IMG/VR virus record: IMGVR_UViG_2606217106_000005
Location: 1-11,921 of that record
From: a virus
Taxonomy: Duplodnaviria > Heunggongvirae > Uroviricota > Caudoviricetes
Length of the DNA stretch: 11,921 bases
Reading direction: 5' to 3' (one strand)
The notes below the pieces were generated by a model. The model saw nothing but the letters and a program-made list of their open reading frames with translations, searched no databases and was not told the origin of the DNA. Made by a program: the position numbers and the translations under genes. Within the stretch, counting starts at the first letter, position 1. Each line of letters opens with the position of its first letter. Below are positions 1,575-11,621 of this stretch, piece after piece.

Positions 1575-4046
1575 TTAAAAATCAGCCTGACTCGGGATCA
1601 GTTTTTGCCAGATAACTGAAACGTATTTTGCCTGGTAACGGGCGTCATCAAGTGCATTATGGCGCTCACCTTCGAATGGAATAGCCGTTCTGGCATCGAA
1701 GTCTATGGCTTTCCCCAGCTCAACGATTGTGCGTACATCGCGATCGTTGTAGTAACGCCACGGGCAGGGGATCCCCTGCCGTTCGTATGAACGGCGCAAA
1801 ATCGTGTTGTCGAAGTTGGCTCCATTTCCCCAGACCTGAACAAAAAATTCACCGGAGTTTTCGTCGATAAATTCCCGCAATTGTAACAGTGCATCATCTA
1901 ACGGGATTTCATCGGTCATAATGGCAGATTGCGCTTCGCGTGATTGCTTAAGCCACCATTTAATGGTGTCCCGATCAATGACTCCGCCAGCAGTTTCCAG
2001 ATCGATAGTCTTACTAAATTCCGGTCCCATATCTCCGGTTTGCGGATCGAAAAATATTGCACCTATTGAGATGATCGGGGCATCAGGATTTTTTCCCATG
2101 GTTTCAAGGTCGATCATTAGATGGTCACACGTCCTGCTGGTGGATGTGATTTCTTGATGACCGTTCACCTTAATTGAGTGATCTGCCGTCTCGCCAGTTT
2201 CATTATCGCTATCGTGATGCTGATTGCCGCCAGTGTTCTCTTTGTGTGGATGTTCAGCGCCTTCCATTTCCTCCGGATCATCTTCCTGAACTTCAACCTG
2301 ATACTCTTCATCGAATGTTTCCTGGTATGTTGCGTCGCCCATCACCGCGCCACAATCAGGGCAGTTGCCGCCGCCGGTCTGACCGCAGGCGGTGCAGATC
2401 TTTTCCGGTTCCTGTTGCACTACTGGTTCAGGTTGTTTCGTTTCTGGCTCGTTTTGTTGCGTACTTGGGCTGTTTTGTTCCGCTTTCTGGTCGTTCTGTT
2501 CCGTTTCTTGCTGGTTCTGGTTCACAGAATCGCGGGTCTGGATCCCATTAACCCATTTCGGATCATTCGGGTCGCTAATCCCTTCAACAAATTCACCACG
2601 TGATACTGCAAGCAGTTCATCGGCGTCAGGCTGGCTGATATTGGCTGCCTGCATAATTTTGTTTACTTCGTCAGCGGTAACTTTTACTGACCCTGGTTGT
2701 GCGGTCGTGTCAGATGCACCAGTATTTTGTTGTGAACCTGAGTATGTACCGTTTTTGCGGGCGAAATATTCTTCTTTCGTGATTTCAGTAGCCCCAGCAG
2801 ACAGCGCCTTATCCAGACCAGAAAGTTTGTTTGCGCGACCGTATTTTTCGCCATCCTTGTCGGTGAAGAGGAAGTAGAACGGCCCCTCACGTTCTACAGA
2901 TGGTTCGACTTCCACTTTGCATTCGGTTTTTTCGTTGTCTGGAATTGCCGTTTCCACTGCATCAGTTTCTGGTACTGGCGACGAGAGAGTATCAGTTGCG
3001 CTCTGATTTGTTCCTTCATCTTCAAACACGCCCTTTGTAGTCAGGTATTCAGTAATGTATTTGTTCAGTGCCACAGGGTCTTTGTGAATGTCGATCGGAC
3101 GTTCACGGACAAGGCCAAAAATAGTCTGGCGGTCGTAGCGAAGGGCATCAGGCTGTTTGCGCATTGATGCCGAGATACGCTTCCAGTCTTCGCGGTCGTT
3201 GTCGATAACTTCATTTTTTGCCCAGCGATGGATGCTGCCGTCAATGTTTCCGGCATCCACATCACCAGGCCAGAGAGCGTAGGCCAGTTCGTCATCCAGT
3301 GTTTTCCATGTCTGCTTGTATTCGCGATGAATGGCAGCAATGACCGGGCTGATTTTTCCTGTTGAATTTTCAGTGTGCTGTTGATTGGTTCTGGCGCGGG
3401 CGAGATCAACAACAGACGTGTATTTTCCGGTTTCCTTGCGTTCACCTTCGCGACGTTTTTTCCAGATGCGCATCTCTGCCTGAATTTCGGGCCATTTGGC
3501 ACCAGGCTTACATTTATGCTTAACGCACCCGATGGCATGCAGCTTAAGCTCCGGATACATGGCGTTAACTTCTGGCATTTTCATCAACGCTTCAACGATA
3601 TGTCCGTCGAATGTTGCCATGTCTTCCTGCAACAATTCCTGTGCGTTAATAACCATATCAACGGTGATGTTTTCACATGTGTCGAACTTAACCATGAGAG
3701 CGTTCTGTACTTCAGGGGCCAGCTTGTCAAAAGTGACGTTCATCAGATCGGATTCAGTCTCAACCGGGACAAAAGAAGCAGAATCCTCATCCCAGCGGTT
3801 TTCCTGCATATATTCAGCATCCCATGAATCGAGGGCAGGGCGGGGTATGCCAGGTTTATCCTCGCAGATAATAAATTTATAAGCGCAGTCCTGAGCAGCC
3901 GGATAATGTTCCAGGAACTGCCAGTGAAATTTTGCTCGAGCACGGCGTTCGTCGCCAGCTTCAATGGCTGTGGCTACAGCCACAGCGCCTTCTTCCCTTG
4001 TTGCCAGTTCGTCAGGAATGGCGGCGCAAATAAAGACTTTACTCAT
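1575..4046 (-). CDS. Large phage exonuclease with C-terminal DEDDh (DnaQ-like) 3'-5' exonuclease domain, Cys4 zinc ribbon and acidic low-complexity linker
   Basis: 823-aa ORF with GAGG SD. C-terminal motifs MIDLETMG (Exo I, D-x-E), GNGANFDNTIL (Exo II), HNALDDARYQ (Exo III, H...D) are visible. CTACGQTGGGNCPDCG is a C-x2-C-x8-C-x2-C ribbon. Sits where lambdoid phages carry exo/recombination genes; I recall similar proteins annotated exodeoxyribonuclease VIII-like, but cannot verify. Confidence 0.8.
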   Translation of the reverse strand: MSKVFICAAIPDELATREEGAVAVATAIEAGDERRARAKFHWQFLEHYPAAQDCAYKFIICEDKPGIPRPALDSWDAEYMQENRWDEDSASFVPVETESDLMNVTFDKLAPEVQNALMVKFDTCENITVDMVINAQELLQEDMATFDGHIVEALMKMPEVNAMYPELKLHAIGCVKHKCKPGAKWPEIQAEMRIWKKRREGERKETGKYTSVVDLARARTNQQHTENSTGKISPVIAAIHREYKQTWKTLDDELAYALWPGDVDAGNIDGSIHRWAKNEVIDNDREDWKRISASMRKQPDALRYDRQTIFGLVRERPIDIHKDPVALNKYITEYLTTKGVFEDEGTNQSATDTLSSPVPETDAVETAIPDNEKTECKVEVEPSVEREGPFYFLFTDKDGEKYGRANKLSGLDKALSAGATEITKEEYFARKNGTYSGSQQNTGASDTTAQPGSVKVTADEVNKIMQAANISQPDADELLAVSRGEFVEGISDPNDPKWVNGIQTRDSVNQNQQETEQNDQKAEQNSPSTQQNEPETKQPEPVVQQEPEKICTACGQTGGGNCPDCGAVMGDATYQETFDEEYQVEVQEDDPEEMEGAEHPHKENTGGNQHHDSDNETGETADHSIKVNGHQEITSTSRTCDHLMIDLETMGKNPDAPIISIGAIFFDPQTGDMGPEFSKTIDLETAGGVIDRDTIKWWLKQSREAQSAIMTDEIPLDDALLQLREFIDENSGEFFVQVWGNGANFDNTILRRSYERQGIPCPWRYYNDRDVRTIVELGKAIDFDARTAIPFEGERHNALDDARYQAKYVSVIWQKLIPSQADF

Positions 4047-4516: not shown

Positions 4517-5005
4517 TATCGCGCCCTCAACAATGAGTTTTGTGATGCGGTGCCTGGTGCCTCCAGGTGACGTTAACCAGTTAACAATTAACGCCGGATA
4601 CAGAGAATCCAACCATAACACTGTTTTTGGTTTTAACTGTTCCGCGTGCGCTTAGCCGCATTCACCGCATCACAAAATTCACTTTAAAAAGGGCGGCAGA
4701 GCAGTCACGGAGTAAAACTGATACCGCCAAACGTCACCAGAAAATTGATAACAGAGGGCGTTGCAGCGGGGTTGTCACTTAAGCGTATGGTCAACCTGAC
4801 AACCCGGTGTCCTCAACGGGGGAAGGAATACCCCCGCCATACTTACCGCCGCGCCATTTCGCGGATTGCCACAACCAGAAGCGCACGGTCGAAGAAATTT
4901 AACGACAAGACTTATATGCAAAGGGATCTCGCCGTGCGCTTTCGTGTTATGCCCTGACTTTTCAGGGTAAATTAACCTGTGGAAACCTGTTTTTACTGGC
5001 GCTAA

Positions 5006-5476: not shown

Positions 5477-5953
5477 TTAAGTTCCTGTCTTGGTGATGTT
5501 CTGGCTTTTCCGTTTTGATTCTTGATTTTTCAGATAGTTAGCTACCTTCATTTCCATTGCGGCAATGTAGGCGCGAACGTCATGATCAACCCAACTAGGC
5601 TCCGTAGCATTTCCAGATAAGAGGAAAGCCACAATTGCTCTTTTTTCATCAGAGGCGGCTTGATAAAGGCTGTTTATGTCTAAAAGTTCACTTTTTGTAT
5701 CTGAAGTGGATGGGGTTGGTATGGGGTATTCGTTAAGCCCCCAATGCTCTGGACCAACCACATCAGAAAAGAAACGCCATAGTTCTGGAAGTTTGTCTTT
5801 ACTTATCGAACCTTTCTTAATCCAGTCATGGATTGATGGTGGTTGGACTTTGAAATGACGTGCGATTTCCGCCTTTGATTTGACGGCTCCTGATGCAATT
5901 TTTTTGTTGATGGCCTGCTCTATCGCTCGGCCTAAGTCTTTACCACTAAGCAT
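5477..5953 (-). CDS. racR: Prophage repressor, RacR-like HTH protein
   Basis: 158-aa ORF between outward-facing promoters. HTH-like segment SKAEIARHFKVQPPSIHDWIKKGS. Length and N-terminus match my recollection of E. coli Rac prophage RacR; followed divergently by ydaS/ydaT-like genes, as in Rac. Confidence 0.8.
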   Translation of the reverse strand: MLSGKDLGRAIEQAINKKIASGAVKSKAEIARHFKVQPPSIHDWIKKGSISKDKLPELWRFFSDVVGPEHWGLNEYPIPTPSTSDTKSELLDINSLYQAASDEKRAIVAFLLSGNATEPSWVDHDVRAYIAAMEMKVANYLKNQESKRKSQNITKTGT

Positions 5954-6050: not shown

Positions 6051-6077
6051 TATTGTGTGTTTTTTGGAGTTCATTCG

Positions 6078-6401
6078 ATGAAAAAAGATAACTATTCATT
6101 CAAACGAGCTTGTGCTGTTGTCGGTGGGCAATCAGCAATGGCTAGGCTTTTAGGTGTATCTCCTCCAAGCGTAAATCAATGGATCAAAGGTGTACGTCAG
6201 TTGCCTGCTGAGAGATGTCCTGCGATTGAACGAGCAACAAAAGGTGGTGTCCTGTGTGAAGAACTTCGTCCTGATGTTGATTGGACATACTTACGACGCT
6301 CGTCATGTTATTCGCAGAATATGTCGATGAAGCAACCAAATGACGAAAACGATCATACCCGAAGCATCAAGAGGCAAATGATTCATGAAAATCAAACATG
6401 A
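6078..6401 (+). CDS. ydaS: Cro-like HTH protein, YdaS-like
   Basis: ATG at 6078 preceded by GGAG (6066-6069). Motif GGQSAMARLLGVSPPSVNQWIKGVRQLPAERCPAIERAT is typical of YdaS/Cro-like proteins. First gene after P_R. Confidence 0.8.
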   Translation: MKKDNYSFKRACAVVGGQSAMARLLGVSPPSVNQWIKGVRQLPAERCPAIERATKGGVLCEELRPDVDWTYLRRSSCYSQNMSMKQPNDENDHTRSIKRQMIHENQT

Positions 6402-6810
6402 GCACATCCGCATGGCGATGAATGCCTGGGCATATCCTGATGGTGAGAAAGTTCCAGCAGCTGGAATAACCCAGGCTTATTTTGAGTTGGGTATGACGTT
6501 CCCAGAACTGTATGACGACAGCCATCCGGAAGCCCTGGCTCGCAATACCCAGAAAATTTTCCGCTGGGTAGAGAAAGACACCCCTGATGCAGTTGAAAAA
6601 ATTCAGGCGTTGTTACCAGCGATCGAAAAGGCAATGCCACCTTTGCTGGTGGCCAGAATGCGCAGCCACAGTTCAGCTTATTTTCGGGAGCTGGTGGAGA
6701 CGCGGGAACGACTGGTGAGAGACGCTGATGATTTTGTCGCAGTGGCGATCGCTGGTTTCAACCAGATGAATCGTGGTGGCCCTGCAGGAAATATTGTGGC
6801 TGTGCATTGA
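6385..6810 (+). CDS. ydaT: YdaT-like protein, putative toxic partner of YdaS
   Basis: 141-aa ORF overlapping the ydaS stop by 17 bp; GAGG SD; same position and size as Rac prophage ydaT. Confidence 0.7.
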   Translation: MKIKHEHIRMAMNAWAYPDGEKVPAAGITQAYFELGMTFPELYDDSHPEALARNTQKIFRWVEKDTPDAVEKIQALLPAIEKAMPPLLVARMRSHSSAYFRELVETRERLVRDADDFVAVAIAGFNQMNRGGPAGNIVAVH

Positions 6811-6881
6811 CTCGCAATATTCATACCGGATCACTTCCGGCAATTTGTGAGTAAAAAGATTCGGTATCAAAAGAGGTGAGT

Positions 6882-7952
6882 ATGGCTAACGCCTGGCTCA
6901 GATTATGGCATGACATGCCAAATGACCCTAAGTGGCGAACAATTGCCAGGGTGTCAGGGCAGCCAATTGCAACAGTGATGGCAGTGTATATCCACCTCCT
7001 GGTGAGCGCGTCACGAAATGTCACGCGAGGTCACATTGATGTCACGACAGAAGATTTGGCAAGTGCGCTCGACGTGACAGAAGAGGTAATTGATTCAATT
7101 TTGCAGACGATGCAGGGGCGGGTACTTGATGGTGATTTAATCACTGGATGGGAAAAACGCCAGGTGCTTAAAGAGGACAACGGCAATATTTCGCAAACCG
7201 CAAAATCTCCTGCAGAGCGCAAGAGGGCGCAGCGAGAGAGGGAAAGAAAGCGGGAACAAAATGGCGATTGTCACGGCGCGTCACGAAATGTCACGCACAT
7301 GTCACGACGAGTCACGACAGATAAAGATACAGATAAAGATACAGATCAAGAAGATCAAAACACTATGGTCCATGGCGTAAAAAACGCCACGAACCAGGCA
7401 GGGGATGTTCAGACCGTCAATCTTGGTCAGCCAGCAGGCACGACACCGGAAGCCGATTCAGCGTATGCGCTGAAAGCCGATTCGGGCGCTGTGCAGCAGG
7501 TGATGACCGCAAGGCCGGAGCAATCACACCAACTGCAGCAGCCCGAAGCCGATTCCGCCATTCAGCGGGAAGCCGATCGGGTAGTCCCGGAAAACACCGG
7601 GCAGTCTGTGGGACGAGTGGATTATCCGGATGTGTTCGAACAGGTCTGGCGGGAGTACCCGTTGCGTGCTGGGGCAAACCCGAAGAAATCCGCTTTCAGT
7701 GCCTGGAAGGCCAGATTACGCGAGGGGGTGCCACCAGAGGCCATGCTGGATGGCGTGAGGCGTTACGCAAGATACTTGGCGGCTACCGGGAAAACGGGAA
7801 CGGAATTTGTTCAGCGAGCGACGACGTTTTTTGGACCGGACCGGAATTTTGAAAACCCCTGGTTGCTCCCGGTAAGCGGCACGAACAACCAGCGTTGTGT
7901 TAATCATATTTCTGAACCGGACACCGAAATTCCGCCGGGATTCAGAGGGTAA
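6882..7952 (+). CDS. Phage replication initiation protein (replisome organizer, O-like) containing the putative origin
   Basis: ATG at 6882 with GAGG SD. N-terminus AWLRLWHDMPNDPKWRTIARVSGQPIATVMAVYIHLL resembles phage replisome-organizer N-domains. C-terminal FEQVWREYPLRAGANPKKSAFSAWKAR...WLLP resembles the conserved C-domain of phage replication proteins. Iteron clusters lie inside the gene. Confidence 0.75.
   Translation: MANAWLRLWHDMPNDPKWRTIARVSGQPIATVMAVYIHLLVSASRNVTRGHIDVTTEDLASALDVTEEVIDSILQTMQGRVLDGDLITGWEKRQVLKEDNGNISQTAKSPAERKRAQRERERKREQNGDCHGASRNVTHMSRRVTTDKDTDKDTDQEDQNTMVHGVKNATNQAGDVQTVNLGQPAGTTPEADSAYALKADSGAVQQVMTARPEQSHQLQQPEADSAIQREADRVVPENTGQSVGRVDYPDVFEQVWREYPLRAGANPKKSAFSAWKARLREGVPPEAMLDGVRRYARYLAATGKTGTEFVQRATTFFGPDRNFENPWLLPVSGTNNQRCVNHISEPDTEIPPGFRG
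7006..7050 (+). repeat. Iteron cluster 1: four TCAC(G) repeats at one-helical-turn spacing
   Basis: TCACG at 7011, 7021, 7042 and TCACA at 7031; inverted copy CGTGAC at 7073-7078; a 21-bp block GCGCGTCACGAAATGTCACGC is repeated exactly at 7276-7296. Confidence 0.6.
7271..7342 (+). repeat. Iteron cluster 2 (five TCACG repeats) followed by a 12-bp tandem duplication AGATAAAGATAC x2
   Basis: TCACG at 7271, 7281, 7291, 7302, 7312 (spacing 10-11 bp); tandem 12-mers at 7319-7330 and 7331-7342, then degenerate AGATCAAG copies; A/T-rich flank consistent with a DNA-unwinding element. Confidence 0.6.
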
Positions 7953-7989: not shown

Positions 7990-8412
7990 GTGGCAAAAGT
8001 TTTTACACAAGAAGAGCGGGAAAAAATTAAAGGGCAGGTTGTTGAACTCGTACGCCAGAGTGGGCGCGAGACGTTACGACAACTGGAAACTAAAACTGGG
8101 GCAACAAGATATCTGATGAGCGTTCTGGCCAGAGAGCTGGTTGCCAGTGGCGATGTATACAATTCTGGCTACGGGTTATTCCCGTCTGAACAGGCTCGTA
8201 AAGACTGGCAAAATGCCCGCAAAAAACTCTCAAGGGCAAAGCTGAAGAAACCATCTGCGGTTGATCCGGACCTTATCTGGTCATTACCAGATGGCGAAAT
8301 ACGCCGCTACGACAGGCGTCTGAACATAATCTGTCTCGAGTGCCGGAAGAGCGAAGTTATGCAGCGCGTACTGGCGTTTTATCAGGGGAATTTTGAGGAG
8401 GTGGTGCGGTGA
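7990..8412 (+). CDS. Hypothetical protein (140 aa), first gene of a translationally coupled trio
   Basis: GTG start with GGAGGG SD (7981-7986); stop overlaps the next start (GTGA). Confidence 0.55.
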   Translation: MAKVFTQEEREKIKGQVVELVRQSGRETLRQLETKTGATRYLMSVLARELVASGDVYNSGYGLFPSEQARKDWQNARKKLSRAKLKKPSAVDPDLIWSLPDGEIRRYDRRLNIICLECRKSEVMQRVLAFYQGNFEEVVR

Positions 8413-10908: not shown

Positions 10909-11339
10909 GTTAATACCTTATACAGAATCAATTAACAATTAATGGTTCTTCGGACATTGAAATTTATATCGCAAAAATTGGCAAACTCTCCTCGACTACT
11001 CACTTGTGGGTATCCTGGCGTAAAAGGAATGACTTGGCAATACCCGGTGTGATCATAAGTCATTGAAAATGATCATTTTTATCAGTCTTTCTTCCATGAT
11101 GAATGCTAATGCCATTTGATTTGTTGAGGTGAAAACTGTTAAAAATCAAAACGATGTAATTGAAATGAACGTTCGGTAGCATTCACGCTTTAAATGTTTC
11201 TTTTGTGCTGATTGGATGAATTTGGGTCACTTCTGATGAGAGATGTTGCAGGAAAAGAAGTTGGCATTGATCTATTGGATAGTTAGAATTACTGCGGGTG
11301 CTTGAGGCTATCTGCCTCAGGCATGAACACCAAAAGGCA

Positions 11340-11420
11340 GATAGAGAAAAGCCCCAGTTAACATTACGCGTCCGGCAAGACGCTTAACATTAATCTGAGG
11401 CCAATTTCATGCTTTGCACA
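11340..11420 (-). ncRNA. Candidate Sok-like antisense RNA of the hok locus (approximate)
   Basis: Inferred only from the canonical hok/sok organisation (antisense RNA opposite the hok mRNA leader/mok start); no clear promoter or terminator could be pinned down by eye. Confidence 0.25.
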
Positions 11421-11465
11421 TGTAGGTTAGCCTCTTACGTGCCGAAAGGCAAGGAGAAGCAGGCT

Positions 11466-11621
11466 ATGAAGCAGCAAAAGGCGATGTTAATCGCCCTGAT
11501 CGTCATCTGTTTAACCGTCATAGTGACGGCACTGGTAACGAGGAAAGACCTCTGCGAGGTACGAATCCGAACCGGCCAGACGGAGGTCGCTGTCTTCACA
11601 GCTTACGAACCTGAGGAGTAA
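11466..11621 (+). CDS. hokD: Hok-family type I toxin (HokD/RelF-like), 51 aa
   Basis: Translation MKQQKAMLIALIVICLTVIVTALVTRKDLCEVRIRTGQTEVAVFTAYEPEE has the Hok signature (single TM helix, LTRK..LCE.R) and matches my recollection of E. coli RelF/HokD. GGAG SD; in-frame upstream ATG at 11409 gives a 70-aa mok-like extension. A 9-bp inverted repeat (11308-11316 / 11336-11344) lies in the leader. Confidence 0.85.
   Translation: MKQQKAMLIALIVICLTVIVTALVTRKDLCEVRIRTGQTEVAVFTAYEPEE

Follow-up and report, generated by a model that had tools for sequence, protein, structure and literature searches.

The question raised by this locus is whether a prophage replication gene contains, within its own coding sequence, the origin at which its product acts. 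The window considered here, i.e. the whole stretch of 11,921 nucleotides (IMG/VR record IMGVR_UViG_2606217106_000005), is the early region of an Escherichia coli lambdoid, Rac-like prophage, and its replication initiator gene contains two clusters of short direct repeats (iterons) followed by an A/T-rich tract. An earlier note on this DNA had proposed a putative lambda-like origin inside the gene. The computational analysis described here supports the proposal by gene identity, synteny and comparative data, and we regard it as likely, judging from sequence, that positions 7010–7396 constitute a prophage replication origin embedded in its own initiator gene. Three elements that the earlier note did not list belong to this layout, namely an inverted copy of the repeat, a palindrome, and the location of cluster 1 in the coding sequence of the predicted DNA-binding domain.

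The nine direct TCAC repeats described previously are present in two clusters, as eight copies of GTCACG and one of GTCACA (Table 1), and their phasing at 10–11 bp is borne out. Because of this period and their shared orientation, the repeats lie on one face of the helix. The clusters share the 21-bp block GCGCGTCACGAAATGTCACGC, identical at 7006–7026 and 7276–7296, and the 10-bp tail GTCACGACAG, identical at 7041–7050 and 7311–7320, as had been stated; for block and tail alike, the offset from cluster to cluster is 270 bp, or 90 codons. The inverted copy stands alone past cluster 1 and is kept as GACGTGACAG in the related loci L086 and L088 and in many further loci. Nine of the ten GTCACG sites of the window fall inside 307 bp, and genome-wide in the complete phage Tritos (25 sites) the hexamer is clustered only in these two arrays. 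Cluster 2 is a repeat array within the initiator reading frame near the junction of two protein domains, and an A/T-rich, easily melted tract adjoins it.

This tract, a (GATAMA)n array and predicted DNA unwinding element, begins with the tandem 12-mer that the earlier note had pointed out: ACAGATAAAGAT occurs twice at 7317–7340 and is followed by a degenerate third copy at 7341–7352. Direct counting of its letters gives about 29% GC, with purines making up about 71% of the top-strand bases. GC content falls to 35–37% at 7300–7380 versus 55–63% in the flanks, and the segment 7321–7360 is the least stable 40-mer of the initiator gene (−43.4 kcal/mol versus a window mean of −53.5, sd 4.0). Two GATC (Dam) sites are located in the predicted unwinding element (7344–7347 and 7353–7356), as is the case at the corresponding position in K-12 Rac (L090, 2618–2634). 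They may be there by chance, or may connect the element with methylation or with regulation by SeqA. In the E. coli prophages L005–L084, otherwise near-identical, the number of 12-mer units varies between about one and more than six, and GATACA and GATAAA variants occur; these microsatellite-like, in-frame changes alter the lengths of both the putative unwinding element and the DKDT linker that it encodes.

The tract is bordered by the hyphenated palindrome TGGTCCATGGCGT-AAAAA-ACGCCACGAACCA (31 bp with 13-bp arms), which is fully paired on the minus strand only, including two G.T pairs. Its predicted DNA fold reaches −10.9 kcal/mol (z −4.8) on the minus strand and −8.7 kcal/mol (z −2.9) on the plus strand. 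The palindrome is kept in an O157 prophage (L002) and an O104:H4 prophage (L003); in L003 a T:A pair has become A:T, a compensatory change by which two amino acids are altered. A role as hairpin signal in single-stranded DNA, or as antisense terminator, is possible; viewed from the minus strand, the palindrome resembles a terminator with a weak T tail. In many members of the family described below, a G/C-rich palindrome or a C-run comes right after the purine tract, e.g. CCCCCTGAGGGGG, CCCACCTCACTACGTTCGGTGGG and ATCCCCCCCGGGGGAAT; examples are found in L088 (3458–3482), L147, L152, L153, L158 and L090 (2630–2660), and they code for a recurrent NPPxPLRG-like peptide.

Repeats within a coding sequence may be functionless at the DNA level, arising as the by-product of a low-complexity peptide or of an internal duplication. 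The 21-bp block, which is in frame in both clusters and codes for ASRNVT twice, would fit this explanation, and so would the 12-mer, whose DKDT repeats could form a flexible acidic linker. The earlier note had described the repeats as in frame and as encoding repeated peptides. This is correct for the two clusters relative to each other; within a cluster, however, the period of 10–11 bp cycles the hexamer through all three reading frames, so that it codes for SR, VT, GH and VT in succession and the peptide is not a simple repeat. The number of copies is likewise far above synonymous expectation: when the protein was held fixed and the codons of the initiator gene were resampled, 1.7 ± 1.2 GTCAC were expected versus nine observed, and none of 20,000 trials reached nine.

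Comparison across hosts and within E. coli points in the same direction. The window (E. coli) was compared with L086 (an AT-rich metagenomic phage) and L088 (a GC-rich Pseudomonas aeruginosa prophage), the latter two at 58–67% protein identity. Among conserved amino acids, the three used identical codons at 13 of 15 iteron positions versus 9 of 44 elsewhere (Fisher p=8.6e-6), i.e. synonymous sites of the repeats are frozen across hosts that differ in GC, and GC-rich hosts retain the A/T-rich GATAAAGATA. Polymorphism was assessed in 84 near-identical E. coli copies; a first N-domain scan of viral sequences, which gave 80 loci with identical protein, was used for this purpose only. Segregating sites amounted to 2 of 60 in the repeat cores, both singletons, versus 7 of 30 in the spacers (p=0.006) and 19 of 115 at other third codon positions (p=0.013). 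Moreover, cluster 2 of the O104:H4 prophage is inverted and therefore codes for a different peptide. The repeats are selected at the DNA level, and their explanation as a by-product is largely refuted and extremely improbable.

Comparison with homologous replication genes, which the earlier note had suggested, shows that the two-cluster layout and the tract that follows it recur in relatives. The N-terminal 100 residues define a family of 1,990 clusters at 50% identity (E<=1e-3, public data). DNA was collected for 87 diverse members, comprising six found by exact-protein look-up, 80 from IMG/VR and the window itself; 71 of the 87 are non-redundant. Within this set of 71, about 65 relatives contain one hexamer at least twice at 10–11-bp spacing in the segment coding for aa 33–76, and again at least twice 200–280 bp downstream in the linker, and the shared hexamer is nearly absent from equal-sized control zones. 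Most relatives have a purine-rich tract behind cluster 2, including those from GC-rich Pseudomonas, one prophage of which keeps it as GATAAAGATACAGAAGAAGAG; at least two GATAMA units are present in the tract of 37 out of 70 relatives.

The repeats of the relatives fall into the classes GTCACG, CGAACGC, GTAACGC and GTGACGC, which have the ACG(C) half in common and differ in the 5′ half. Clusters 1 and 2 are always of one class, and both switch together. All 16 loci with GTCAC in the upstream zone have GTCAC or TCACG downstream, and strict class concordance is seen in 51 of 71 loci, versus a mean of 25.6 and a maximum of 40 for permuted pairings. The repeats co-vary with the variants of the N-terminal winged-helix domain of the initiator and travel with this domain. 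Module and repeats are also found in a stand-alone protein of 160–220 aa, encoded upstream of primase-helicase or DnaB-like genes. Because the module recurs in this way, the conserved unit is the DNA-binding domain together with two repeat arrays and an easily melted tract. Two further observations concern the composition of this family. In a second E. coli lineage (L159–L173; P0016, P0017), a 21-bp insertion in cluster 1 (peptide TCHGVSL) adds two iterons, bringing the cluster to six, and the C-terminal part differs. In the metagenomic homologues P0042, P0060, P0073, P0099, P0101 and P0109, an HNH endonuclease domain (PF01844/PF14279) replaces the replication C-module; such fusions may be sequence-directed nucleases built on an origin-binding domain.

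The repeats might also serve another protein or process: a host factor, the repressor, the neighbouring cII-like activator YdaT, or some function in recombination or packaging. In lambda, CII recognises direct tetramer repeats spaced at 10 bp within coding regions, a cII-like gene is located just upstream of the initiator gene, and one weak antisense promoter-like match lies at 7294–7267. On the other hand, the repeats accompany the N-domain into phages whose regulators and hosts are entirely different, e.g. prophages of Pseudomonas that have a primase-helicase module or a Cro/CII set, and the repeat class follows the N-domain variant, not the neighbouring genes. No excess of promoter- or terminator-like sites was found in 6700–7600, where the promoter-like count equals the shuffled expectation. 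A reader other than the initiator appears very improbable. Both the peptide-repeat explanation and the one invoking a neighbouring regulator were rejected on the data on frame, synonymous sites, polymorphism and co-travel with the N-domain.

A comparable layout is found in initiators whose N-domains are unrelated. Such initiators have the C-terminal half (about 7357 onwards) in common with the gene of the window. The O157 prophage has two clusters of AAGGGGCTTC at a distance of 256 bp; (GAACAG)n comes next, and after it the same junction sequence. In the O104:H4 prophage, the downstream cluster repeats the upstream one in inverted orientation (87% complementarity over 23-nt arms). K-12 Rac ydaU, with a third type of N-domain (DUF1376), has its own repeat GATGTTCAAACA, then AAAGATACAGATAAAGAT; the element GATACAGATAAAGAT, the same as in the window, follows the ydaU repeats. 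For the Rac prophage an experimentally active origin, oriJ, is reported.

The protein encoded by the gene is identified as a phage replication initiator. PHROG 3729, "replication initiation protein", is matched along the whole sequence (E 7e-258), and PHROG "replisome organizer" families at E 4e-6 and 2e-4. Seven phage records with 96–98.5% identity bear the label "replication protein O" or "phage replisome organiser", and NCBI uses the names "phage replisome organizer" and "replication protein O". The N-terminal part (aa 1–165), modelled with AlphaFold2, displays a winged-helix topology with pLDDT >90 for aa 11–95, followed by a linker that is disordered except for a basic helix at 110–126. 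Cluster 1 codes for aa 43–55, the end of helix 1 and the H1–H2 loop, which is the sole hypervariable segment of the winged-helix domain. Cluster 2 codes for the disordered linker (aa 130–145) that joins the C-module to the winged-helix domain; together with the 12-mer, this cluster encodes CHGASRNVTHMSRRVTTDKDTDKDTD, a low-complexity peptide downstream of the N-domain.

Alignment to Pfam PF09681 (Phage_rep_org_N) is end to end, with aa 5–123 on profile positions 1–119 of 121, and this profile matches 7 of 45 N-domain relatives (best E 3e-4). Judging from these profile comparisons, the window initiator may belong to the replisome-organizer N-domain family at most as a remote member that scores below threshold. 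Pfam Phage_rep_O (lambda O) gave no match at E<=0.01 for the whole protein, nor at E<=0.1 in the 45 N-domain relatives. Plasmid iteron replicons are recognised by iterons of 17–22 bp and a Rep_3 initiator; the period here is 10–11 bp, and no Rep_3 match in Pfam was obtained for the initiator or its N-domain relatives.

For the C-module, modelling gives a confident three-helix core. Its C-terminal tail VNHISEPDTEIPPGFRG (aa 340–356, 7899–7949) is near-identical to the C-terminus of E. coli DnaT, INSVSEPDNHIPPGFRG. The match is limited to the last ~24 residues (SEPDxxIPPGFRG; E 0.005–0.07; DnaT chains 2ru8, 6aep and 9zbt), and the tail is common to Rac YdaU (IPPGFRG) and to initiators with other N-domains. 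This similarity suggests mimicry of a host primosome contact. A DnaT-like C-domain core was considered and dropped, since the fold search gave no DnaT; the tail motif alone was kept. A recent paper on the structure of DnaT does not discuss the C-terminal tail.

Taken as an origin, the region might operate as follows. Monomers of the N-domain would bind the repeats head to tail. Cluster 2, beside the (GATAMA)n tract, would drive melting of the tract, and the C-module with its DnaT-like tail would bring in host DnaB–DnaC, a step that we infer because neither a helicase nor a loader is encoded by the phage itself. Together with the inverted copy, cluster 1 would either cooperate with cluster 2, the ~220 bp between the arrays being looped or wrapped, or tune initiation; for cluster 1 and its inverted copy, both cooperative looping or wrapping and regulation are possible.

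Regulation could also be the sole purpose of the repeats. They would then be initiator sites for autorepression, for a roadblock in the initiator's own gene or for copy control of the handcuffing type, with the origin elsewhere; a weaker form of this explanation concerns cluster 1 only. Plasmid systems of the P1 incA/incC type use additional iteron arrays for control. Cluster 1 is located well away from the easily melted tract, 130 bp downstream of the start of the gene, and the clusters are spaced without helical-turn phasing. However, cluster 2 lies directly beside the segment of lowest stability in the gene and is followed by a purine-rich tract in most relatives, the complete 46-kb phage genome contains no further GTCACG cluster, and the layout is that of experimentally proven origins within initiator genes. 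We therefore consider regulation without origin function quite unlikely.

Several results weigh against an origin at 7010–7396, or against parts of the proposed mechanism. No DnaA box and no IHF consensus was found in 6700–7600. Among the relatives, the clusters are 221 to 281 bp apart, a distance that is not constant in helical turns and shows no consistent phasing, so that the looping model lacks direct support. Since cluster 1 codes for a segment of the protein, some of its co-variation with the protein is automatic. The predicted recognition helix (aa 67–77) is acidic. A Foldseek search of the PDB with the N-domain model returned weak matches only (E>0.3), all generic winged-helix regulators, and assigned no family. 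The PF09681 score of 15.6 bits (E 0.017) is below the gathering cut-off of 23.3. A PDB fold search with the C-module model gave nothing significant and did not retrieve DnaT.

A tentative extension of the origin hypothesis, which we consider unlikely, is that cluster 1 acts as a self-referential specificity cassette, i.e. that the same ~40 bp are bound by the initiator and code for its sole hypervariable segment (aa 43–56). The H1–H2 loop would then help to read the variable 5′ half of the repeat, and the invariant PNDPKWRT surface would read the invariant ACG(C) half. If this were true, a single conversion event between the clusters would change the specificity of origin and initiator, generating a new replication-specificity type in one step, and this would explain both the joint switching of classes and the recurrence of the two-cluster layout with unrelated N-domains.

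The surroundings of the initiator gene are those of a Rac-like early region (Table 1). Located after cro- and cII-like genes, the gene is syntenic with lambda O, and it has the Shine-Dalgarno sequence AAGAGG 5 nt upstream of its ATG. The initiator was found, at >=80% coverage, in 1,647 of 5,426 complete E. coli genomes (~30%), and a search of genome contigs with the C-domain gave one locus, in Shigella. It is the sole recognisable replication gene of the complete 46,360-bp phage Tritos (L174), where no helicase, loader or primase was found. The prophage of the window likewise has no helicase, no primase and no P-like or DnaC-like loader, and the gene that comes directly after its initiator is DUF977/Ren-like; in L002–L004 (L002, 3079–4617) and K-12 Rac, which have the same C-terminal module, a DnaC-like ATP-binding protein, with or without DUF1627, is encoded in between. 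A natural mini-replicon was sought in PLSDB, and the matches there were large records or mislabelled chromosomes. Rfam lists no family in the region of the initiator-gene repeats. The DicF and sok RNAs of the window are usual cargo in Rac/Qin-like prophages.

Table 1. Coordinates of the proposed origin, of the initiator and of neighbouring features in the window
Feature	Position	Strand	Remarks
Iteron cluster 1, four direct repeats	7010–7046	plus	GTCACG at 7010, 7020, 7041; GTCACA at 7030; spacing 10, 10, 11 bp
Lone inverted GTCACG	7073–7078	minus	27 bp past cluster 1
Iteron cluster 2, five direct GTCACG	7270–7316	plus	7270, 7280, 7290, 7301, 7311; spacing 10, 10, 11, 10 bp
Purine-rich, A/T-rich tract, (GATAMA)n array, predicted DNA unwinding element	7317–7365	plus	ACAGATAAAGAT twice and degenerate units
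Hyphenated palindrome	7366–7396	minus	directly right of the A/T-rich tract
Replication initiator gene ("replisome organizer"/O-like), 356 aa	ATG 6882 to stop 7952	plus	open reading frame list, translation, PHROG 3729
N-terminal winged-helix domain, aa 1–97	6882–7172	plus	helices 16–25, 29–45, 56–63, 67–77; loop 46–55; beta-hairpin 78–87
C-terminal module, aa 159–356	7356–7949	plus	mosaic junction, domain combinations
Integrase	157–1275	minus	
RecE-like exonuclease VIII	1575–4046	minus	
DicF antisense RNA	4691–4742	minus	Rfam match above threshold, 76.7 bits
RacR-like repressor	5477–5953	minus	
YdaS/Cro-like gene	6057–6401		
YdaT/cII-like gene	6385–6810		
DUF977/Ren-like gene	7990–8412		directly 3′ of the initiator gene
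sok antitoxin RNA of hok/sok module	11296–11471	plus	Rfam match above threshold, 119.8 bits

The origin is unannotated, and no open-access description of it was found, most of the older phage-replication literature being outside the search. Origin and repeat classes would offer a way to predict the replication-specificity (incompatibility) types of lambdoid prophages. A compact one-gene replicon, consisting of an initiator with an internal origin and no loader, might be of use for vectors or for studies of the recruitment of host DnaB–DnaC. The matched variants of protein and site (GTCACG, CGAACGC, GTAACGC) would provide a natural series for the co-evolution of overlapping specificity and sites.

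Among known replicons, P1 (incC/incA) and P4 (ori/crr) resemble the window in having two separate arrays of one initiator-binding repeat per replicon. They differ from it in that the window has both arrays within the initiator coding sequence, ~220 bp apart, and in that its initiator family is unrelated to theirs. The ydaU–ydaV region of K-12 Rac is closer in context, with the synteny racR, ydaS, ydaT and initiator, the shared C-terminal tail, and repeats followed by GATACAGATAAAGAT. Nevertheless, the YdaU N-domain (DUF1376) is unrelated, its repeat GATGTTCAAACA is spaced at 33 bp, and the DnaC-like loader YdaV is absent from the window.

An origin of the lambda type inside an initiator gene is a known kind of element and textbook lambda biology. 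In lambda, ori is located inside O and consists of four 18-bp iterons and a 38-bp AT-rich region at 39034–39160 (PMC3349717). Lambda and the window have in common an origin (predicted here) in the initiator gene, at the junction of a DNA-binding N-domain and a C-terminal recruitment domain, an array of initiator repeats (the binding again being predicted here) followed by an A/T-rich, strand-asymmetric tract, and a position of the gene after cro and cII. In both, the N-terminal halves are type-specific and exchangeable, and the C-terminal half is shared. On the other hand, the window initiator has no detectable sequence relation to lambda O, and its repeats are short (6–7-bp core), direct and phased at 10–11 bp, in contrast to the 18–19-bp units of lambda. 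The window also has a second, upstream array with an inverted copy, no P- or DnaC-like loader, and a DnaT-like tail.

The replisome organizers of Gram-positive phages provide a further comparison. SPP1 gp38 binds direct repeats of oriL inside gene 38 (PMC6316719), and TP901-1 ORF13 and Tuc2009 Rep2009 bind repeats inside their own genes, and these repeats constitute the ori (PMC8965321). The window resembles these systems (SPP1 G38P/oriL, TP901-1 ORF13, Tuc2009 Rep2009) in having direct repeats in the initiator's own gene beside an AT-rich unwinding element, the latter predicted here. It differs from them in that the hosts of its relatives are Proteobacteria, in its C-terminal module, and in the lack of a loader partner (G39P/DnaC-like) in the window. 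The features that stand out are the short repeats phased at 10–11 bp, a second array where the gene codes for the DNA-binding domain, the concerted switching of repeat classes in both arrays, the widely conserved (GATAMA)n tract, and the combination of a DnaT-like tail with the absence of a loader.

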